Assembly (NCBI GenBank): GCA_963813025.1
Contig: CAWEXO010000011.1
Coordinates: 704,001 to 768,000, forward strand
Direction: 5' to 3'
Source of the DNA: an uncultured Verrucomicrobiae bacterium
GTDB taxonomy: Bacteria; Verrucomicrobiota; Verrucomicrobiia; Chthoniobacterales; JAFAMB01
DNA: 64,000 bases
Both the position numbers and the translations under genes were made by a program. This document shows, piece after piece, positions 5,767-55,530 of this stretch. Position 1 is the first letter of the stretch. Each line of letters starts with the position of its first letter. The notes beneath the pieces are model-generated. The model saw nothing but the letters and a program-made list of their open reading frames with translations. It had not been told where the DNA came from and searched no databases.

Positions 5767-7380
5767 TTAGTGCCTTGCCTGGTCAGCAGATCTTTTCCGA
5801 TACATCTCCCGGAACGGATGTTCATCCAACAGATTCGGTTCGATGCCTCCGAATTTCACGGAGTCATAGATCTGGATTCCCATGTAGAAATAGAGGGGAC
5901 AAATCGGTGTCCCCCGGTTGAGCAGAAGATCTTCGGCTTGGGCGAAAATCTGCAAACGCTTCCGCTCGTTTGATTCGCGCGCGGCCGCTTCGATGAGGCC
6001 ATCGTAAGCGGCATCGCTCCAGCCGGTCCGGTTGTTGCCACCATGCGAGACGAAACAATCCAGGAACGTGTTTGGGTCGTTGTAATCGCCAACCCAGCTG
6101 GACCGGGCAAAATCGTAGTCAAGCCGATTCAGAGAGTTCAAATACACTTTCCATTCTTGTTTAGCCAATTGTACGTGAACGCCAAGCTCGGTCGCCAGCA
6201 TGCTCTGGATCTCGACGGCAATGTCTTCGTTGAGTTTTTTGCTGTCGTAGAGGTAGGTAACTGTCGGGAATCCCTTTCCATTCGGGTAGCCGGCGGCCGT
6301 CAGAAGTTCACGGGCGCGCTGAGGGTCGCGCTGAAACGTCTTTGGCGGTTGATACTGATGCGCTATTCCCGAAGGGGTGAAGGAGTAAGCCGGCGGTTCG
6401 CCCGCCTGAGTTATCTTGTGGACGATTCTCTCGCGATCGATGACCATTGAGAATGCTTGGCGCACCCGTGTATCGTTGAACGGCGCTCGAGTGACGTTGA
6501 AGCGGATAAAGTAAGTCCCCAAGAAAGGAGCGGCATGGAAATCAGGCCGCTTCCGTAATTCCGGAATCAGGGAGGGAGGAGTCAAACCTTTATCCAGAAT
6601 CAGGTCGGCCACCTTGGAAGCGTAGAAGTTGTAGGCGGTGATGGAATTGTCGATTGGCAGCGCGTCGATCGTTTCCAGCCGGACATGATCCCGGTCCCAG
6701 TAGGTTGGATTTTTTTTAAAGCGAATCCGGTAATTCAGACGCCAATCTTCTAGTAAGAACGGCCCGTCGTTAACCAGGTGGCCCGGTTTCAGCCATTCTT
6801 CGCCGGCCTGCTTGATGCTCGGAAGATAGACGGGCGCAAAGGTGGCAATGGCGCAAAGATCCAGAAAATACGGTGTGGGCGAGGTCAATTCGACACGCAA
6901 GGTGCGCTCGTCCAGGGCCTTGACCCCGACCTGGCCGAAATCTTTCAGCTTCCCTTCGTTGAAAGCCTGCGCGTTCACGATGTGGTAAAACAGGTAGGCG
7001 TATTCCGAAGCCGTTTCTGGCAGGAGCACGCGTCTCCAGGAATTGAGAAAGTCTTGCGCGGTGACCGGCTGCCCGTTGCTCCATTTTACTCCTGGACGGA
7101 GCTGAAAGGTGTAGGTCCGTTTGTCGTCCGAAATGACCCAGCTCTGGGCAACAGCCGGCTGTGCCTGACCAAACCGGTCGAAATGTAAGAGCCCGTCGAA
7201 CAGGGCGTAAACCAGCCGCATTTCTAGCTGGCCGGTGACCACGGCCGGATCGAGGGACTCCGGCTCTGCCCCGTTCAGGATGACTAGATCAGCCCGTTTT
7301 TCGGCCGGCTTGCATCCAGCAAGTACGAGCAGTGTCAACGCTAACCAGATCGGAAAACGAGCTCTGATCCGTCGCCGCAC
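5767..7380 (-). CDS. Peptide ABC transporter substrate-binding lipoprotein (OppA family)
   Basis: Lipobox LAGC; EPESLDP, YTFQLRPGVKWSNG, WVGDYNDP. Confidence 0.92.
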   Translation of the reverse strand: MRRRIRARFPIWLALTLLVLAGCKPAEKRADLVILNGAEPESLDPAVVTGQLEMRLVYALFDGLLHFDRFGQAQPAVAQSWVISDDKRTYTFQLRPGVKWSNGQPVTAQDFLNSWRRVLLPETASEYAYLFYHIVNAQAFNEGKLKDFGQVGVKALDERTLRVELTSPTPYFLDLCAIATFAPVYLPSIKQAGEEWLKPGHLVNDGPFLLEDWRLNYRIRFKKNPTYWDRDHVRLETIDALPIDNSITAYNFYASKVADLILDKGLTPPSLIPELRKRPDFHAAPFLGTYFIRFNVTRAPFNDTRVRQAFSMVIDRERIVHKITQAGEPPAYSFTPSGIAHQYQPPKTFQRDPQRARELLTAAGYPNGKGFPTVTYLYDSKKLNEDIAVEIQSMLATELGVHVQLAKQEWKVYLNSLNRLDYDFARSSWVGDYNDPNTFLDCFVSHGGNNRTGWSDAAYDGLIEAAARESNERKRLQIFAQAEDLLLNRGTPICPLYFYMGIQIYDSVKFGGIEPNLLDEHPFREMYRKRSADQARH

Positions 7381-7386
7381 AAAGAA

Positions 7387-7926
7387 CTATTTTGCCGGGG
7401 TACCGCTCCCCGGTGTGGGGTTTTTCGGAGGAGCAGCCATTGGTGTGGCTGGCGAAGCAGCGGGCGGGGGTGTGGTTGTGGCAGTCGCTGTGGTTACGGA
7501 TGCTGGACTAGAGGCGGACGCATGCGTCGCCAGCGGGGTTGTCAACGGTGCCGGACTGCCAGTAGCTCCAGGGTTTGCCGCAACTGCTGGTGAAGCCGCG
7601 GTAACAGCCGGAGCGGGATGCGCCGGTGCGGCGGCGCTTGCCTTTCTGGCTTCGCTTTCCAAAAGACCGACCCGCCGTTCGAGTCCTTGCCGGGCGGTCA
7701 GGACCGTCAAGAGCAATGTCACCCCGAAAAAAGCGATTCCCAGATATACCGTGGCTTTTGTCAGCACAGTTGTGGTCTGAGCGCCGAAGATGTTTTCCGT
7801 CATCCCTGAGCCGAAAGCGGCGCCCAAGCCTTCGCTGCGCGGTCTCTGCATCAACACTACAAGGGTCAAGAGGATGCAGACGATCACGAGAACCACGAGC
7901 AGGAAAGGGATGAGGATCGACAGCAT
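7387..7926 (-). CDS. secG: Preprotein translocase subunit SecG with Pro/Ala/Thr-rich tail
   Basis: VVLMQRPRSEGLGAAFG...LTKAT; start placed at MLSILIPF. Confidence 0.88.
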   Translation of the reverse strand: MLSILIPFLLVVLVIVCILLTLVVLMQRPRSEGLGAAFGSGMTENIFGAQTTTVLTKATVYLGIAFFGVTLLLTVLTARQGLERRVGLLESEARKASAAAPAHPAPAVTAASPAVAANPGATGSPAPLTTPLATHASASSPASVTTATATTTPPPAASPATPMAAPPKNPTPGSGTPAK

Positions 7927-8060
7927 AAGAGCGGGAATATGTGCACTGGTTTCCGGGAAAAGCAAGTGGGTGCGCTGAGGAGCGGAGGCCAGTCCCAGTG
8001 CTCTGCTTGACACTGCGGGCTATTGGCAGCGAGACTCATTGCTGCACGAGTAAATCCTTC

Positions 8061-8873
8061 ATGGCCGAAGAGACCCAGAGAGTCACGGCACCGGACCGGC
8101 GCCAGCTGTCGGCCGCGATGAATTTCTTTTTAAAGCAGACACTTCCGCGCTTCGACGTCGAATCTTGTGCCAAGGCCATCCTTTTCACCTTGGATCAATT
8201 CTTTCCTGCGAAGTCCTTGATGGCCTATCTCTGGCATCCGGTCCATGAAGCTAATCAGCGCGTTTTTCTGCATTTGGCGGACGGCGTAGTCTCGCGCACA
8301 CTCCAGGTGTTTCCAGACGCGACGGCGATCCGTTCGGAAAAAGCACGCAAGAACTCAGATGATCTGGATTTGATCGCTCATCGTTCGCTGCAGTCATTCC
8401 GATTGGACCCGGAGGCGCATAACCTTTTGGAGCTGGCCGGTTGTCGTGGCGCGGTTGAAGGTCGTTTTCGTTATTACGGAAAGCCCTTTCTCTGGGTCAT
8501 TCTGGGCGTAGCTAATCCGCGGGTACTCCGGGAATCGGCGGCCGAGGAGTTTCTCCTGCTTTTCAGCCGGTGTTGTCTCGTCTCTTTGCACGGCGCCTAC
8601 ATTGCGGAGTCCGATGAAGGACGGGATCGGTCGCGCGAGTTGAATAACACCAATCTGAGCCTCACGCTGCAATGGTTTCACTCTGTCCTGCGCCACCTCA
8701 ATCTTGGACTGCTCGATCTGCAAACTGGTGAGAAGGCCGAGGCGCAAAGCGCCCTGGAACGTGCGTCAACGGTCGCCAGCCTCTGCCTGGCACAGCTGTT
8801 GTGGTACATGCGCGAGAGGACGGGCGCGGCATCAACTGAAGCCACGGTAGTGCGGAGTGCGGAAGAAAGCTAA
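8061..8873 (+). CDS. Hypothetical protein
   Basis: 270-aa ORF divergent from secG, fills the gap; no motif recognised. Confidence 0.6.
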   Translation: MAEETQRVTAPDRRQLSAAMNFFLKQTLPRFDVESCAKAILFTLDQFFPAKSLMAYLWHPVHEANQRVFLHLADGVVSRTLQVFPDATAIRSEKARKNSDDLDLIAHRSLQSFRLDPEAHNLLELAGCRGAVEGRFRYYGKPFLWVILGVANPRVLRESAAEEFLLLFSRCCLVSLHGAYIAESDEGRDRSRELNNTNLSLTLQWFHSVLRHLNLGLLDLQTGEKAEAQSALERASTVASLCLAQLLWYMRERTGAASTEATVVRSAEES

Positions 8874-8874
8874 C

Positions 8875-9132
8875 GGAGTGTCAGTGCCAGTGCTGGTGCT
8901 AGAGTCAGTGCCAGTGTGTGCGGCAGGCTCAGTTCGAGCTCGACACGTTCCCGAAGCGAGAAACCTACGGGTTAAGCAGTCAGCTCCGTCGCGCGGCCGT
9001 CTCTGTTCCGAGTTGCTGGTGGACACCGATGAGATCGGACGAATGTGTAACGGATTGACCAACGTTTTGCGCCGCCCGCGATCCCGCCGACCCAACTAGC
9101 ACTGGCACTGACACTGGCACTAACACTGACTC
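8875..9132 (+). mobile_element. Miniature element: internally deleted four-helix-bundle gene remnant between inverted hexamer-repeat arms (copy 1)
   Basis: Left arm (agtgyc)n, right arm (grcact)n; interior translates LDTFPKRETYGLSSQLRRAAVSVPS then DEIGRMCNGLTNVLR. Confidence 0.75.
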
Positions 9133-9150
9133 TGTGGTTCCGTGCTCGCC

Positions 9151-11274
9151 ATGATTCGCCTTCTGCTAGTTTTTCTGGTGACGGCCACCGTCAGCTTGGC
9201 CTCCGGTCTCCCCTATCCCGAAGCGAAGAAAGGGGATGTGGTTGACGACTATCATGGCACAAAGGTCGCCGACCCCTACCGCTGGTTGGAGGCTCTGGAT
9301 TCACCGGAAACTGGCGCCTGGATCAAAGCGCAGAATCAAATCACCGCCGGCTATCTCAGCACATTGCCCGACCGGAGCTATTTCCGGGAACAGCTCAAGA
9401 AATTCTGGAACTTTGAGCGCTACACGACTCCGATCTGGGAAGGGGGCCGCTACATTTTTCGCCGAAACGACGGGCTCCAGAATCAGAGTCTCATTTATAC
9501 GGTCCGCCAATTGCAGGACACGCCCAAGCTGGTGCTCGATCCGAATCAAATGTCCGCCGATGGAACGGTAGCAGTCACCGCTCTCGAGCTGAGTCACGAC
9601 GGCAACTTGCTGGCTTATTCCGTCGCGGCCAGTGGGTCTGATTGGACCGAGATCCACGTCCGAGATCTCACGACCAATAAAGACCGGCCAGACGTGATCA
9701 AATGGGTGAAGTTCTCCGAACCCGCCTGGACGCACGATAACCGTGGTTTTTTTTATGCGCGATTTCCCGAGGCGGTCCCCGGCCAAGACCAGACCTTTGC
9801 AGCCCTGAAAAATCAGAAGCTTTATTATCATCGCCTGGGCGATCCCCAGGAGAAAGACACCCTGATCTATGAAAGACCCGGCCAGCCGAAGGAGTTCTTC
9901 TCTGGCTACGTAACCGAAGACGGGCGCTACCTTCTCGTCTCAATCGAGTCAGATGCCGGCGAGAAAAATCTTCTTTACTACAAAGATCTCAAACAGCCCG
10001 ATCAGCCGGAGCTCACCGGACCGCTGGTTGCCTTGATCGAGAAATACGAGAACGCGTACCGGCCGGTCGAGGTGGTGGATAACCAGCTCTATGTGCAAAC
10101 CGATAAGGACGCTCCCCGCTATCGCGTGCTGCGGACCGATTTGAGTCAGCAAGATCATCAGTGGACAGAGGTCGTACCGGAAACCAAAGACCTGCTCGAA
10201 AGCGCTGACATCATCGGCGGCAAATTTGTCCTGAACTACCTGGTTGACGCCAAGAGCGAACTGAAAGTCGCCGGAATGGACGGCAAAGTCGAGCGTAGCA
10301 TCCCGCTGCCGACACTTGGCGCAGTTTCTGCGGTTTCCGGGAACGTGTCGCGGCCTGAGCTGTTTTACGCTTTCACCTCTTTTCTGTATCCGCCTACGAT
10401 TTTCCGTTACGACATTGATTCTGCCCGCAACGAGATCTTTCGCCAGCCCCAGCTGGACTTTTCACCGGACGCGTTTGAGACCGAGCAGGTCTTCTTTCAT
10501 TCGAAAGACGGCACCTCAGTCCCAATGTTCGTGGTCAAAGCTCGGGGAACGAACCTGGACGGAAAAAATCCGGTCTATCTGACCGGGTATGGCGGGTTCA
10601 ACGTTTCGATCAAACCACAGTTCTCCGTGCCCGCGCTTTGCTGGATAATAAAGGGCGGTGTCTTTGCTGTGCCGAATCTGCGGGGTGGGGGTGAATATGG
10701 GCGAACTTGGCACGAAGCTGGAATCAAGGAACGTAAGCAAAATGTGTTCGATGATTTTCGCGCGGCGGCGGAGACGCTGATTAAAGAAAAGTACACTGAA
10801 CCTGGCCGCTTGGGAATCGTGGGTGCTTCGAATGGGGGGTTATTAGTGGGAGCGACACTGACCCAGCATCCGGAACTGCTCGGTGCCGCCGTTGCGGAGG
10901 TAGGAGTCCTCGATATGCTGCGCTATCACAAATTCACCGTCGGATGGGCATGGGCGTCGGACTACGGCACATCCGATGACCCGGAAGTGTTCAAGTATCT
11001 GATTCGGTATTCCCCGCTCCAGAACGTCAAACCAGGTACTTGTTATCCCCCAACCCTGATCACGACAGCCGATCACGATGATCGGGTGTTTCCGGCGCAT
11101 TCGTTCAAGTTTGCCGCGGCTCTGCAGGCGGCGCAAAGCTGCCCTAACCCGATCGTGATCCGGATCGAAACGAAAGCCGGACACGGCAGCGGAAAGCCAT
11201 TGTCGAAGGTGATCGACGAAGAGACGGACGTACTGGCGTTTCTGTGGAAAAACCTGGCGCAACCCGCACGTTAG
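9151..11274 (+). CDS. Prolyl oligopeptidase (S9A), secreted
   Basis: VADPYRWLE, NLRGGGEYG, catalytic GASNGG, DHDDRV, AGHG; signal peptide. Confidence 0.96.
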   Translation: MIRLLLVFLVTATVSLASGLPYPEAKKGDVVDDYHGTKVADPYRWLEALDSPETGAWIKAQNQITAGYLSTLPDRSYFREQLKKFWNFERYTTPIWEGGRYIFRRNDGLQNQSLIYTVRQLQDTPKLVLDPNQMSADGTVAVTALELSHDGNLLAYSVAASGSDWTEIHVRDLTTNKDRPDVIKWVKFSEPAWTHDNRGFFYARFPEAVPGQDQTFAALKNQKLYYHRLGDPQEKDTLIYERPGQPKEFFSGYVTEDGRYLLVSIESDAGEKNLLYYKDLKQPDQPELTGPLVALIEKYENAYRPVEVVDNQLYVQTDKDAPRYRVLRTDLSQQDHQWTEVVPETKDLLESADIIGGKFVLNYLVDAKSELKVAGMDGKVERSIPLPTLGAVSAVSGNVSRPELFYAFTSFLYPPTIFRYDIDSARNEIFRQPQLDFSPDAFETEQVFFHSKDGTSVPMFVVKARGTNLDGKNPVYLTGYGGFNVSIKPQFSVPALCWIIKGGVFAVPNLRGGGEYGRTWHEAGIKERKQNVFDDFRAAAETLIKEKYTEPGRLGIVGASNGGLLVGATLTQHPELLGAAVAEVGVLDMLRYHKFTVGWAWASDYGTSDDPEVFKYLIRYSPLQNVKPGTCYPPTLITTADHDDRVFPAHSFKFAAALQAAQSCPNPIVIRIETKAGHGSGKPLSKVIDEETDVLAFLWKNLAQPAR

Positions 11275-50416: not shown

Positions 50417-50594
50417 CCGATGAACGTCTTGGAGTGCGCGCGAACTTGTCGCCGCTTTAGGACCGCGCGGAGCGCGGCTTAGGCCGAGGACGGAACAGCA
50501 AAGCGCCGGTTTCGGGCGAGAAGAGCCCCATACCCGCGCTCCGCGCAGATCTCAAAGCGGCGACAAGTCGCGCGCACTCCAAGACGCTCATCGG
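50417..50594. repeat. Long palindromic REPIN-like repeat between convergent genes
   Basis: ccgatgaacgtcttggagtgcgcgcgaacttgtcgccgcttt versus aaagcggcgacaagtcgcgcgcactccaagacgctcatcgg. Confidence 0.85.
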
Positions 50595-51739
50595 CCATTG
50601 GTCATCACCGTGGGCCGTATTCGCAGCATTGTCCGGCCGTAAGATTCCGCGCAAGCGAAGACCGCTTTATACACTTCGCAATAAGGGTCCTTGGCCATCA
50701 TCGTTCCAAGGGCACTGTAGGTTCGCACCGGGCAGCCGCCATGGCAGATCGAAAGATAGCGGCAGGAGAGGCAGTCTTCGTCTTGCACCAAGCGCTTCGG
50801 CCGTTCCACGAAATCTTGCCGCGCCCGGCTCGTTTTCAGCATGCGAGTGAGATCGGGTTCTTGAAAAACGTTGCCGAAAAAATATTCCGGATAGCTGGTA
50901 ACCCAGCAGTCGCACTGGGCAACTGTGCCTTTGGAGTCCACGGAAATAAATTGGTTGGAGCAGTTCTCCTTCCAGATGCAGGGAAGACGCGCCTCTTTAC
51001 CGGTGAAATGATTCATCAACCCGTCAAACGGGCCCGAGGGAAACGCCCTTCCCGTAGCCTCGCGCTATCCAGATATCGAAGAGCCCGACTAAAAAGGCGG
51101 CCAACTCGAGCATATCGAGCTTGAAATCGTCCTCGATTTGTTTTGCCGGACCACCGGGAAACGGGGTATTGACCTGGAAATCCGTCAGACCGAGTTCCTC
51201 GGTGTAATAACGGTAAAATTTTTCCGGACCTGCCTTCAGAGTGGCTTGGTGAAGCACGGCGATCACCCCGATCTCGATCCCGGCCGCTTTGGCCTCATGC
51301 AGCCTTTGTGTCCAGAGCTTGGTGTAGGCCTCCGCGCCGCCTCGGAAAAGCTTGCGATGAACATTGGGATAATCCATCGATGTTCCGAGTGAGCCGTTAA
51401 ACATCCCGTGGATCACGTCATTCCACGCGGGCGAGTAACTGATCAGATTCGTTTGCAGATAGTGAGAAAAGCGCCGTCCTCGCTTCGCGGCGGCGGAGTC
51501 CATAACCTCTCCCGCATGCGCGAACCAGTCGGGTCCCATGATCATCGCCTCGCCGCCCTGCCAGTAAATTTCGCACTCCTCGATGCGCTCTTTCTCCAAA
51601 TGGTCCAGCAAGCGCTTAGTCAACAGAGGGAACAGGCGGGTGACAGACGATGCGGCTCTTTGTGCTCAAAGCAGTAATCGCAAGCGACGTTGCATTCCGA
51701 CGTCGGAAGAAGAATGACGCTGAAAACTCGACCACTCAC
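50588..51739 (-). CDS. Radical SAM/SPASM domain protein, putative RiPP maturase (frameshifts near 51635 and 51028)
   Basis: Manual translation MSGRVFSVILLPTSECNVACDYCF (CxxxCxxC), YWQGGE, LQTN; SPASM CIWKENC...QCDC...CLSCRYLSICHGGCP...DPYC. Confidence 0.9.
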
Positions 51740-52635
51740 TGTGTATTTTGCCCCGCCCAGGTCGGGTTAGCTGGTTTGTCGAGGCGCAACCGGCCAGGTC
51801 TTCGACCGATCTCGTTTGCCGCCGCTTGAATGTCGGAAAAGAGCTCTTTTACTCCTTCACAGGAGTAAGCTGGATCCGGCCATTTGAAATAGCCGCGGCA
51901 TGGCTGTTGCCAGGGACAGGCCGCGCATTCAGCGTCCCTGTGCAAGGAGGCTGCTCAAGATGACTCTCGACAAATTCCGCGGGAGCGCCTCCGATTGGTC
52001 CGAACCGAGCCGGAGCGGGGCAACTTGGCCTGTCCATCGATATCGTACTGGAGAAAGAACGGCTGGATCTTCCTCGAGGATCATCCAGAGCGAGCCGGCG
52101 TCAGCGCCACGTAGGCGGTCGCGAGCAGCGAGTGGAAGAACTCCACCGGCGCCTCGACCGCCGGTTCATAAAGATAGAAGTCAGAGCTTCTTTGAGTTCG
52201 GTTAGGGTCGTCGGCGTATGGTTGACCCGGCAATATCCTCGGACTGGAAACCGCAAGGCTCCAGCGAGTTTGACCGCCTTGAGCAAACCGCGTCCAGCCG
52301 GGATGGTCACGCGGACGTCGTGGACTGCGCAGGCATCAACCAATCGGTAGAGGTCCGAAAACTCCGAAGCCGGGTCGGCCAGAACGATGTCAATGGAACG
52401 TCGGAGTCGCTGTGCGCCACCTCCGTCCAGGCATCCGAATCGCCCGACATCCCTTCGACCTGGAGCCACTCCAAACCGGGGAGCGGATCGCCGAGCCATC
52501 GGCAGAGTTCCTCTCGATTCCGGACAATGGCGACGAAGGGCAGATCACCTTGCGTTCTCCGCCAGAGCAGACGGCAAGATCTGAGAGGACGATGATGATC
52601 TTCCTCGGGCACGCAAATTCCAGAGGCTCACTCAC
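51736..52635 (-). CDS. SPASM-like Cys-motif partner protein lacking the SAM-binding motif (about 300 aa, several frameshifts)
   Basis: Fragments PFVAIVR, IVLADPASEFSDLY, VRVTIP..GLLKAVKLA, APVEFFHSLL, WMILEEDP, CAACPWQQPCRGYFKWPDPAYSC; GTGA overlaps at both ends. Confidence 0.65.
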
Positions 52636-52926
52636 CACCGATTGAGCCAGCTGCCCGCGACGTCGGCCACCCCAGCGGTTGATCCACCTACCCCGACGCC
52701 GAGGACCCCAGCGGTTGATCCATCCGCCGCGGCGAGGACCCCAGCGGTTGATCCAAACTCTGCGCATTGGCCTTCGGCGCGGAGGCAAGCCAAGCACGCC
52801 AGCCAGCCCGATCGCCGCAATCGCGGCCCCAGACCATTTTCCCATGCTCCGGAGAAATAGCCGCCTGTTCAGCGACTCTTTTTCGCTGTCGGAGCCTTCC
52901 GTTTCAGAAGAGGGTTGATTATTCAT
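52632..52926 (-). CDS. Putative RiPP precursor: Tat-type leader plus W-[IL]-N-R-W repeat core
   Basis: SLNRRLFLRSMGKWSGAAIAAIGLAG; three in-frame WINRWG repeats and a terminal SWLNRW-stop one base out of frame. Confidence 0.8.
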
Positions 52927-52946: not shown

Positions 52947-53454
52947 TTATTCTTCATCTTCAGTTCGGCGCCAGAATCGAAAAGTGCATGGCGGCGATAA
53001 GCCACTTTCCATTCTCTTTCGTGGCCGTAACCGACAGATTGAGCGGGAAGGTGAAATCTGTTTCCGTCCTTCTTTCCACTGACGTTGCCTGACGTCATCA
53101 TCCAACCCATGTCCGATCGCGAGTGCGCCGACGCTCGAACTCGTATTCGAAATTTTGTTCTCCAACGTCGAAGCCTTCAAAGAGATGTTCGATGGGCCGC
53201 TTTGAGTTCATCCGGACCCGACCAGATTTCCCCGGGACCGGTGCCCATCATGGCCGCTTTCTGGGAAAGGACAGCCATCACTCCATCCAGGTCGTGGTTT
53301 GTAAAAGCCGCGTCGTGCGCGTCGAGCAGAGCGCGAAGCGGCGCTAACTCGGGATTCTCCGGTTCTGCGTAGGCGTCTGCGCACTCGCAGCGCGAAGGGA
53401 CTGCGGCGGCGCGCTGCTTGCTGCGGCCACTGTAGTAGCTGCTGTTCGGTTCAT
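52947..53454 (-). CDS. NTF2/SnoaL-like protein (several frameshifts; ends approximate)
   Basis: LLDAHDAAFTNHDLDGVMA, MGTGPGEIWSG, FPLNLSVTATKENGKWLIAAMHFS. Confidence 0.7.
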
Positions 53455-53644
53455 AAGCATTGTACACTTGTAAGCGAAGGTAATCGCTCAACAAGAGCAA
53501 ACTGAGTTCTCGCGAGGTTCTGTTTTGAGCGGCCGTTCGCTCCCGGAGGTCATTTGAGAGGGCTGGATACTGGAATTGCCTCGCAATGGCGTCAAGGGCG
53601 CTTGCGGTGTCTGAATCGCGGCTAAGGACGTCGAGAATCTTATT

Positions 53645-54552
53645 TTAAGCGAATTTCCGTCCAGTGAGTTGCTCTAATACTCGCAGCGGCGAGCTCGTCT
53701 CATTGCGCAATTGTGCGACCGGAACAAGAAAGGTTTGTTCTAGCTGATACTGGCCGCGCATCGCGGCATGCGAAACCTGGTCAGTAAAGGCAAGCCAGGT
53801 GGAGCCAGCCGGAAAGTCCAGCTCGAATCTGTTCTACCTCGGTCTGGTAGCGATCATCCATCTTCATCCGGTTATGAAGTTCGAGCATGAGATGGTCATA
53901 TGAGTGTCCGCCGGCTTTTCGTGACGTGAAGGAGCCTCAGCATACTGCTGCTTCCAAAAACCGGCCGCCTGATCGAAGAAAAAAAACGCGCAGCCATCTG
54001 TTCGAAAGGTTCGCCAACCCGCCAAACGCGTCCTCGGCCAGAGGGATTGACGTTCGTAAAGACTCGTAAAATTCGTTTTCCGTGGGTGGGTGCGGATGGG
54101 AAACTATCGACATGCAAGCGGGTGTCATCCTTTCGCCACGACGTGGCGCGACCCTCAATCTGGATCGGACGGAAACTCGTCCGTGCCCGGATCAATCCAC
54201 TTTCATAGGGAGAAGCCAAGCGCAGGACGAGATCGCGGGCGAAATCGGCAAAACGCGCAATCATCTTGCGAAGAAGTTCGGCATTCGGCGCCGAGGCGGC
54301 TGTCCCGCGGAGCGTCCGACTGCGCGGATCGTAGCTCACGTTCTTGGCCTTGCCGACGATCGCCGGAGAGAAGAGGGCGCTTTCTTCATCCGTCACGGCA
54401 AATCGGTACTGCGGGAGAAAGAGGATCTTCCCGCTCTCTAAAGCGCTGATCGCGCGGTCGACCAGACCAGCAGGAGCAGACGAATCTTGCGGCTCAATTT
54501 CGATGAGCTCAAGAGGGCTCATGCTCAGCCTCGCGGAATCCGTCGCCTTCAT
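53645..54552 (-). CDS. Kdo hydroxylase family protein (KdoO-like; frameshifts near 53900 and 53830)
   Basis: SWRKDDTRLHVDSFPS.PT.G.RILRVFTNVNP; downstream frames give YDHLMLELHNRMK and FTDQVSHAAMRGQYQLEQTF. Confidence 0.85.
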
Positions 54553-54621
54553 TCAGGTTCATTTGATTTCCGCAGCGGTGGCAATCATCTCCTCTTCCGA
54601 AGATTACCCGAGGACAGAAAC

Positions 54622-55530
54622 CTATTTTACGTCCGAAGGTGCTCCGGAAGAAAGCGCGCGCTCCGGAGAACGGCGATTTCTCGGAGGAAGGTTCGGATCG
54701 AGAAAGCCCAAAGCGTGCGGCGGTTGGATGACGCGCACGCCCTCTTTGTGTTGCGTTTCCAGAATCGATTCATGGAACTGCTGCATCTTCGTCCAGTGCA
54801 GCTTCGGGCGAAAATGATGCTCCGCGTGGTAGCCATTATTGAACCAAAGCAGGTTGTACCATTTATCGTACGAGCTGACGCCCCAGGCGATTGGCTTGTC
54901 GGGATTGCCGCCGTAATGAAGAAAGTAACCGTTCAAATACGTGCAGCAATGTCCCAGATAATAGAATGGCAGAAAGAAGAGCCAAAATTTCCAGTTCAAC
55001 ACAAAGCCGATGGCAATGGTCAGGCCAAGAATCGCGATCTCAATTAGTCCCCATCGTGCGTCGACTGGGTTTTTCCGTTTGATTTCGGCATAAATGGTCT
55101 TTGGATCTTCGCGCAAATAGCTCAGGAAAATATAGCTCCAGGGATTCTCCGCTTCGCCGTTGTGCCCGTGGCGGTAAATCGAAATCCAGTCGTGTGTATG
55201 TCCATGCTCATCTGGGCGATCACTGTTCCCCATATGGTGCCGATGATGCACGTGCTTATAAAAGGTCTGAGAAATTCCGAGCGTAACCGACTCCATGATA
55301 CTGAAGAGTCGATTGAGGATCCTGGATTTAAAAAAAGGGTTGTGAATCAGGTTGTGCGAGACGCCGTTAATATTCCATGAAACGCTGACCGAATAGATCA
55401 ATCCGAGGCAAATCAGCAGCCACCAAGGTGCGTAGGGAAAGATGAAGAACAAAGTGACAACGTAGGCAAAGTGCAAAAGGCCGCAGGCGACACAAACTGC
55501 ATCCCATTTAGAGTACGAAAGGATTTTCAT
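54622..55530 (-). CDS. Fatty acid desaturase family membrane protein
   Basis: Three His boxes HNLIH, HHRHH, HAEHH. Confidence 0.85.
   Translation of the reverse strand: MKILSYSKWDAVCVACGLLHFAYVVTLFFIFPYAPWWLLICLGLIYSVSVSWNINGVSHNLIHNPFFKSRILNRLFSIMESVTLGISQTFYKHVHHRHHMGNSDRPDEHGHTHDWISIYRHGHNGEAENPWSYIFLSYLREDPKTIYAEIKRKNPVDARWGLIEIAILGLTIAIGFVLNWKFWLFFLPFYYLGHCCTYLNGYFLHYGGNPDKPIAWGVSSYDKWYNLLWFNNGYHAEHHFRPKLHWTKMQQFHESILETQHKEGVRVIQPPHALGFLDPNLPPRNRRSPERALSSGAPSDVK

Follow-up and report, generated by a model that had tools for sequence, protein, structure and literature searches.

A candidate family of triceptide-like peptides with a probable twin-arginine signal in Verrucomicrobiota

What is made from a small, frame-broken bacterial gene in which a twin-arginine-type motif is followed by a series of Trp-x-Asn repeats? 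The question is raised by a 64,000-nucleotide (nt) stretch of DNA from an uncultured Verrucomicrobiae bacterium (contig CAWEXO010000011.1 of assembly GCA_963813025.1, positions 704,001 to 768,000; hereafter the window), where the gene occupies positions 52632..52926 of the minus strand. A preliminary description of this stretch, made from its letters alone, had proposed a peptide precursor that uses a twin-arginine signal as its leader and yields an Arg/Trp-rich cationic core. Homology searches and analysis of the gene neighborhood confirmed that the small minus-strand gene, with its twin-arginine-type motif and Trp-x-Asn repeats, is real. With moderate confidence, we read its product as the precursor of a triceptide-like peptide that is made on ribosomes and modified after translation (RiPP), in which the leader would also serve as a signal for twin-arginine translocation (Tat), a radical S-adenosylmethionine (SAM) enzyme would crosslink the core in the cytoplasm, and Tat export would be followed by cleavage by signal peptidase.

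Mechanical translation of the minus strand gives an open reading frame (ORF) of 178 amino acids (aa) at 52926..52390, which starts M..ESLNRRLFLRSMGKWSGAAIAAIGLAG.. and continues with VWINRWGPRRGGWINRWGPRRRGRWINRWGGRRRG. The first 94 residues of this ORF comprise an acidic N-terminus, NRRLFLR (its RRLFLR at 52866-52849), GKWSGAAIAAIGLAG, VLGLPPRRRPMRR and the repeats, so that the thirteen residues of VLGLPPRRRPMRR separate GKWSGAAIAAIGLAG from three W-I-N-R-W-G units. The gene as a whole is readable only across three frames, and it matches its family only when read in the first, second, first and third frame in succession. The first piece (52798..52926, minus strand) opens with the ATG at 52926 and an acidic n-region and runs through RRLFLR to GKWSGAAIAAIGLAG. 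The second, WLASAPKANAQS (52757..52792, minus strand), lies in the second frame and holds the end of the hydrophobic h-region together with an AxA-type signal-peptidase site; AWLASAPKANAQS is readable here (W..S at 52792-52757), with ANA at 52771-52763. The first frame then resumes (52654..52755, minus strand) with the three W-I-N-R-W-G units and the Pro/Arg/Gly linkers between them. The third frame (52632..52655, minus strand) closes the gene with G-S-W-L-N-R-W and TGA (52634-52632), which is the conserved C-terminus of the family. Three W-I-N units in frame and one WxN unit in a shifted frame are present in all. By comparison with homologs, this reading divides into a signal or leader (about 54 aa) and a core (about 42 aa), with neither Cys nor the sulfatase motif Cys/Ser-x-Pro-x-Arg.

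The peptide repeats are coded by three 36-nt direct DNA repeats (52655..52759) that begin at 52655, 52691 and 52724, at a spacing of 36 and 33 nt, the second and third copies being 78% and 72% identical to the first. Their common core begins at 52669, 52705 and 52738, which are the positions and the spacing reported in the preliminary description. Two plus-strand ORFs over the same region (72 and 79 aa) were dismissed, since they mirror the conserved gene of the minus strand.

The frame changes were placed by DNA alignment of the window precursor to four relatives. The first consists of two extra bases (or one missing base) near 52794, the second of one extra base between 52765 and 52756, and the third of one extra G in the run 52656-52654. 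The preliminary description had asked for three 1-bp corrections; three changes are indeed backed by the intact homologs, but the first of them is not a single extra base. Because the first two changes total three bases, the long ORF survives with thirteen wrong residues mid-way, while the third abolishes the true stop, so that the ORF extends into the gene that follows. Between the AxA site and the first Trp, homologs have Q-S, Q-V or G-I, not R-V.

Homologs were sought with the first 94 residues of the window ORF as the query. This search returned 167 proteins at E<=10 among 316 candidates, with a best E of 6e-39; in a profile search of 1.84 billion cluster representatives, 226 reached E<=0.001 and 98 reached E<=1e-10. 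The 28 homologs that were aligned measure 94-118 aa, follow the pattern RRLFLR-x-x-GKWSGAAIAA-x(4-5)-G-x-WLA-x-AP-x-x-x-A-(G/Q)-x-W-I-N-R and finish in W-[I/L/V]-N-R-W-stop. More than 100 intact homologs of 94-107 aa carry the frame-corrected reading GLAG-x-WLA-x-AP-x-x-x-A-(G/Q)-x-WINRW and close with W-x-N-R-W-stop; AWLASAP..KAQ and similar sequences stand in homologs at the place of the window's second-frame piece. When homologous precursors were aligned (alignment A1, which gives the numbering), columns R22, F24, L25, G29, K30, W31, S32, A34, A35, A38 and A54 were invariant. These 11 invariant leader positions exceed what is usual for signal peptides, which suggests that the putative Tat-signal leader is also read by maturation enzymes.

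Motif counts over 120 listed homologs bear out most of what had been seen in the single sequence. The motif RRxF[LIVM], present in the window as NRRLFLR with a hydrophobic stretch behind it, is kept in 115 of them; a small-x-Ala (AxA-type) site lies just before the first Trp in 113, in agreement with the site that had been read in a shifted frame just ahead of the core. Three or more WxN units occur in 113 homologs. The C-terminus W-x-N-[RW]-W, to which the shifted-frame SWLNRW corresponds, is found in 111, and several of the exceptions are visibly frame-shifted entries. The alignment of homologous precursors that had been proposed as a check thus found RRxFL and AxA conserved, and the corrected reading turned out to be the form, 94-107 aa long, that is standard in the family, and no long unrelated ORF. 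Among 138 small new representatives from the profile search, 121 have the RR motif, 126 a [GK][KR]WS-type motif and 102 at least three WxN units.

Composition statistics were calculated for those 108 of the 120 homologs that a filter retained for having the family C-terminus and the GKWS motif. The median length is 54 aa for the signal and 49 aa for the core, and the core contains 2-7 W-[I/V/L]-N units (median 5). Median core contents are 7 Trp, 8 Arg+Lys (range 2-14), 15.5 Gly and no acidic residues. Of the 509 repeat units, 492 have I or V at position 2; position 4 is taken by R in 406 and by Gly in 75, and position 5 varies between W, R and G; the invariant positions are Trp and the Asn two residues on. 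The Arg/Trp-rich character described for the window holds in its own clade, where the core has about 15 Arg and 8 Trp, but it is limited to this sub-clade: family-wide the core is Gly-rich, and distant members carry few charges.

Several family members deviate from this layout. In P0071 (123 aa) a signal of the type found on the SnoaL-like partner described below (MNRREAI...) is joined directly to a WINRWG repeat core; it may be a hybrid that occurs naturally, or else an artefact of deletion or assembly. Five long proteins (P0171, P0209, P0211, P0264 and P0265; 521-1289 aa) each have 4-9 stretches that match the profile's repeat part, and Gly-rich W-x-N-type repeats may thus also occur inside big proteins. 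The N-termini of the distant members P0168 and P0175 weakly resemble TIGR04117 (E 0.0085 and 0.049), the model for the Cys-Xaa-Xaa-Xaa repeat radical SAM target protein, which hints at a leader type common to target families of radical SAM enzymes.

The genomic context of the precursor was analyzed in 45 loci obtained by a pattern scan with one genome per species. To judge by the record titles, almost all of these loci are from Verrucomicrobiota, including those of Chthoniobacter flavus Ellin428 (L041) and Verrucomicrobium sp. BvORR034 (L047). The usual cassette consists of genes for a secreted SnoaL-like protein, the precursor, a 285-aa radical-SAM/SPASM-like protein (B285) and a radical SAM/SPASM enzyme, in this order. 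In the closest relative, the same-genus locus L004, all four genes are intact (SnoaL-like protein 6443-6979, precursor 7001-7291, B285 7292-8149, radical SAM/SPASM enzyme 8146-9321), and they abut or overlap. The SnoaL-like gene stands directly upstream of the precursor in 41 of the 45 loci; a script counted 39, and in two more (L009 and L014) it overlaps the precursor start by a few bases. Downstream of the precursor, B285 was found in 28 loci, the radical SAM enzyme in 27 and both in 27; one locus (L008) stops at a contig edge. Clustering of all ORFs from the 45 loci yielded no conserved protease or transporter, no sulfatase gene within the conserved cassette, and no other gene family common to more than 14 loci.

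Of two genome samples, the one at order level was the more informative; in it, the precursor was found in 29 of 301 genomes, the window's genome included: 20 of 39 in the window's own family, 6 of 39 in a second family, 1 of 1 and 1 of 8 in two more, and none in twelve families. A phylum-wide sample of 400 other genomes, with up to 12 candidates scored per genome, gave no match at E<=1e-5.

The presumed maturase is the radical SAM/SPASM enzyme. Its gene in the window (50588..51751, minus strand) is split into three frame pieces, with CNVACDYC in the ORF at 51739..51620 and the SPASM part in the ORF at 51019..50588, and both the CxxxCxxC and the SPASM cysteines are invariant. The intact relative from L004 was scored against curated NCBIfam models and their cut-offs. 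The best-scoring models were anSME (TIGR03942; 144.7 bits, cut-off 349.45), the dynobactin/darobactin models NF041298, NF038005 and NF041300 (DynA 137.3/450, DarE 112/650, DarW 124.2/650) and GrrM/OscB; lower scores were obtained with YhhB (NF041707, 64/445), FxsB (TIGR04269, 53.1/370) and XyeB (TIGR04496, 44.6/450), and no cut-off was reached. The closest relatives of solved structure, by sequence, are anSME (88 bits, PDB 4k37) and the triceptide synthase ChlB (46.6 bits).

The gene for B285 (51736..52612, minus strand) lies in at least four frame pieces in the window according to tblastn. B285 has no CxxxCxxC motif: where the enzyme reads ...LPTSECNVACDYCF, B285 reads ...LPSSLAEKAGDLPF at the same place, while an invariant C-x2-C-x5-C-x12-C is kept at the C-terminus. 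B285 matched no Pfam or NCBIfam family, and in direct scans of the window ORFs neither its pieces nor the 178-aa ORF matched a relevant one. A confident AlphaFold model built from 13 sequences (pLDDT 86, pTM 0.83) gave ChlB (Foldseek E 5e-6, TM 0.56) and anSME as the top fold matches, and in a language-model look-up B285 fell among small clusters auto-named radical SAM. A predicted complex of the radical SAM enzyme, B285 and the precursor scored 0.78, versus 0.73 for a control with the enzyme replaced, and was not used as evidence.

The third partner is encoded upstream of the precursor (52960..53500, minus strand) in at least two frame pieces. It matches the Pfam families SnoaL_3 and DUF4440 and the SgcJ/EcaC family, and its relatives have a signal peptide of their own, M-N-R-R-E-A-I..., in which 22 of 38 ORFs have RR and 8 have RK. 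Since it has its own signal, this protein is expected in the same compartment as the mature peptide. Its tight pairing with the precursor, even where the enzymes are encoded elsewhere, would fit a role as partner, carrier or immunity protein for the peptide, a role on which we can only speculate.

Is the N-terminus of the precursor a Tat signal? Such signals have the consensus S/T-R-R-x-F-L-K ahead of a mildly hydrophobic stretch. NRRLFLR fits the twin-arginine motif; behind it come an Ala/Gly-rich h-region of some 17 residues and then the AxA site. The genome encodes TatC (191.4 bits, G000:C9:41111-41752). In the curated Tat-signal model TIGR01409 (cut-off 16.7), three of 28 distant members pass at 17.3-19.3 bits and another scores 15.5, while close homologs match a formate-dehydrogenase Tat-target model weakly (E 0.016-0.2). 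We conclude, on the motif rather than on a model score, that the N-terminus is probably a Tat signal. A Tat signal here would find a rationale in passages of PMC11626156, according to which macrocyclic peptides should be poor substrates of the general secretory (Sec) pathway and signal peptides are rare in RiPP precursors.

The cassette was compared with known systems. In its layout it resembles the GrrA/OscA1-GrrM/OscB triceptides (TIGR04260/TIGR04261), with which it shares a repeated aromatic-X-X motif (here W-[I/V]-N), a Gly-rich C-terminal core and an adjoining radical SAM/SPASM enzyme. It differs in having a Tat-type signal, a radical SAM paralogue without the SAM cluster and a secreted SnoaL-like partner, and it occurs in Verrucomicrobiota, unlike GrrA, which is known from Cyanobacteria. 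The likeness is limited to the repeats: among 36 members scanned (8 close and 28 distant) the best TIGR04260 score was 22.3 bits, below the cut-off of 31, the matches cover the repeat region only, and the enzyme is likewise well under the cut-off of its model (73.8/310). ChlB (PDB 9gm3 and 9gmc) is the best fold match of B285 and a sequence relative of the maturase, but B285, unlike ChlB, has no CxxxCxxC SAM-cluster motif and retains only the C-x2-C-x5-C-x12-C at its C-terminus. The maturase finds its best sequence match in anSME, an enzyme that acts in the cytoplasm on a protein bearing an export signal; the present substrate, unlike that of anSME, has no Cys and no sulfatase motif. The dynobactin and darobactin enzymes DynA, DarE and DarW are among the best-scoring models for the maturase, but the precursors in those systems hold one short core as opposed to 3-8 repeats in the present family, and to our knowledge they carry no signal peptide. 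As described in PMC11626156, bufferins resemble the present family in having a general-secretion signal peptide instead of a dedicated exporter and leader protease, and their product is periplasmic; unlike it, they use a Sec signal and MNIO enzymes, contain Cys-derived thiooxazoles and have a known copper-binding role.

Precedents for the chemistry come from the same group of enzymes. Triceptides are defined by an aromatic-X-X motif (PMC11499958); in the present family such a motif is repeated along the core, and a radical SAM/SPASM enzyme adjoins the precursor in the 27 loci noted above. Passages of PMC11002830 state that OscB joins Trp C7 to the C-beta of Asn or Asp at i,i+2, that XncB joins Trp C6 to the C-beta of Arg or Asn, and that dynobactin contains a link from Trp C6 to Asn C-beta. 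Given these OscB and XncB precedents and the invariance of Trp and Asn at i,i+2, a Trp-Asn three-residue cyclophane is the most likely product.

The gene, its family, motifs and neighborhood and the presence of TatC are observed; the steps that follow, from the type of crosslink and the timing of export relative to modification to the use of Tat, the place of cleavage and the function of the peptide, we infer. The N-terminal ~54 residues would act as a Tat signal and probably double as the leader for the maturation enzymes. The downstream radical SAM/SPASM enzyme would crosslink each W-[I/V]-N unit in the cytoplasm, possibly with the help of B285, which is radical-SAM-like without a SAM cluster; the link would most likely run from the Trp ring to Asn C-beta in a three-residue cyclophane, as in triceptides. 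The bulky multi-ring peptide would then leave via the general Tat system, signal peptidase I would cut after the conserved AxA site, and the ~42-aa core would be released into the periplasm, where the SnoaL-like protein is expected too.

A number of observations weigh against this reading. The precursor reaches no curated family, with at most 22.3 bits versus the 31-bit cut-off of GrrA/OscA1, and the maturase remains below the cut-offs of GrrM/OscB (73.8/310), DynA (137.3/450) and anSME (144.7/349). TIGR01409 matches none of 8 close homologs and Pfam TAT_signal none of 3, and KR replaces RR in 4 of the 120 homologs. In 12-13 of the 45 loci, the precursor and the SnoaL-like gene occur without enzymes nearby, and in the window neither the precursor nor the maturase gene can be translated in a single frame. 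In a two-membrane cell, moreover, Tat delivers only as far as the periplasm, and a periplasmic or envelope role is for this reason at least as likely as that of a secreted antibiotic; the antimicrobial reading of the core in the preliminary description draws on composition and could apply to the window's sub-clade only.

Several competing explanations were considered. The broken frames may mean that the cassette in the window's genome is a decaying pseudogene cluster and not an assembly artefact, which we regard as improbable. Three frame changes fall within the 295 nt of the precursor. Counted against L004, at least 13 occur within 49.1-54.6 kb, distributed over GltS (2), the radical SAM gene (2), B285 (at least 3), the precursor (3), the SnoaL-like gene (at least 1) and KdoO (2), with only the single break of an AcrB-type pump gene falling outside; they are mostly single inserted bases (1-2 base indels) away from long homopolymers, as decay would allow. 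Yet the breaks are not confined to the cassette, since GltS, KdoO and the AcrB-type pump are affected as well, and the pieces contain no premature stops and retain 86-95% amino-acid identity to the same-genus relative in the radical SAM, GltS, KdoO and AcrB genes. The desaturase-like gene, two other genes and the flanking genes are intact against L004. This pattern, with many genes hit and identity kept, fits a locally poor consensus better than decay, and errors in the assembly consensus are the most likely cause of the breaks. In the databases, too, entries of this GC-rich repeat gene are commonly frame-shifted. Low completeness (80%) was dropped as a sign of assembly error, as the same-genus genome with an intact cassette is at 79%.

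The remaining alternatives concern the product itself. The signal, modification by the radical SAM enzyme and export could follow the same logic with a reaction other than the Trp-Asn three-residue cyclophane, for instance a Trp-Arg link, a larger ring, an ether link, epimerisation or anSME-like C-beta chemistry. Models of anSME, DynA, DarW and DarE are indeed nearer to the maturase than those of the named triceptide synthases are, Arg follows Asn in 406 of the 509 units, and a radical SAM enzyme that crosslinks Trp-C5 to Arg-C-gamma is known in WprB (PMC11851443). Trp and Asn are nevertheless the invariant residues, with Gly at position 4 in 75 units and W, R or G at position 5, and OscB and XncB have W-x-N as a proven substrate motif (PMC11002830), so that another reaction seems unlikely. 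The N-terminus might instead be a Sec-type signal or a purely cytoplasmic leader, its RR pair serving enzyme recognition. This would account for the failure of curated Tat models to score close homologs and for the KR variants; bufferins offer a RiPP with a Sec signal (PMC11626156), and [GK][KR]WS after RRxFL is far more conserved than is usual in signal peptides, which suggests a recognition role. It leaves the RRxF[LIVM] of 115 homologs and the Ala/Gly-rich h-region and AxA site behind it superfluous for a cytoplasmic leader, three distant members do pass TIGR01409, and the authors of PMC11626156 expect that multi-ring peptides pass SecY poorly; we consider it quite improbable. Very improbable, finally, is an unmodified secreted repeat protein beside enzymes that act on something else. 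The 12-13 loci without enzymes nearby would fit it, but in 27 loci the precursor, B285 and radical SAM genes follow one another in tandem with frames that abut or overlap; of five genomes whose precursor locus has no enzymes beside it, four carry B285 at another place and the fifth is a 1.2-Mb bin; and ORF clustering of the 45 loci revealed no other conserved candidate substrate.

The Tat-exported, crosslinked peptide favored here can be extended to a more specific proposal, which we put forward tentatively and regard as possible but doubtful. Tat would be used naturally by a RiPP too bulky for Sec, one and the same sequence would be Tat signal and maturase leader, and B285 would bind this signal and retain the precursor until all W-x-N units are crosslinked; the SnoaL-like protein would take over the peptide in the periplasm or render it harmless. 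The proposed holding role of B285 has an analogue in the signal-binding chaperones of Tat-exported redox enzymes.

Two observations on the surroundings may be added. A broken KdoO gene (Kdo hydroxylase) and a fatty-acid-desaturase-like gene (window 53651-55530) adjoin the cassette both in the window and in L004, and are not conserved in the other loci of the 45. Many database entries of the family are visibly frame-shifted (P0204, P0208, P0225, P0050, P0059 and others), some of them at the same signal position as the window, and assemblies seem liable to indel calls in this GC-rich repeat gene.

Neither the precursor nor B285 nor the present maturase clade falls within a curated family. A literature search returned nothing that joins a triceptide, or a natural RiPP made by a radical SAM enzyme, to a Tat or twin-arginine signal, although the JACS 2022 paper on the triceptide landscape or its supplements may already list the cluster; it also returned nothing that joins Chthoniobacter with radical SAM and SPASM, and Verrucomicrobia, signal peptides and Tat are all unmentioned in PMC10288494. 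Where Tat export of a RiPP appeared in the searched literature, it was an engineering use (PMC5686179). Among such peptides, the combination of a Tat signal with crosslinking by a radical SAM enzyme has probably not been described before.

A RiPP pathway normally depends on a leader protease and an exporter of its own, and a general secretion signal has so far been shown in RiPPs for Sec, in the bufferins (PMC11626156). By the record titles of L041 and L047, the family occurs in cultured strains and can therefore be tested at the bench. If the reading given here is true, a natural family that combines a Tat signal with radical SAM modification would show how cells export rigid multi-ring peptides, and would provide a compact cassette of four genes with which cyclophane peptides could be made and secreted. 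The triceptide field would gain a new maturase clade and a partner protein of a new kind.

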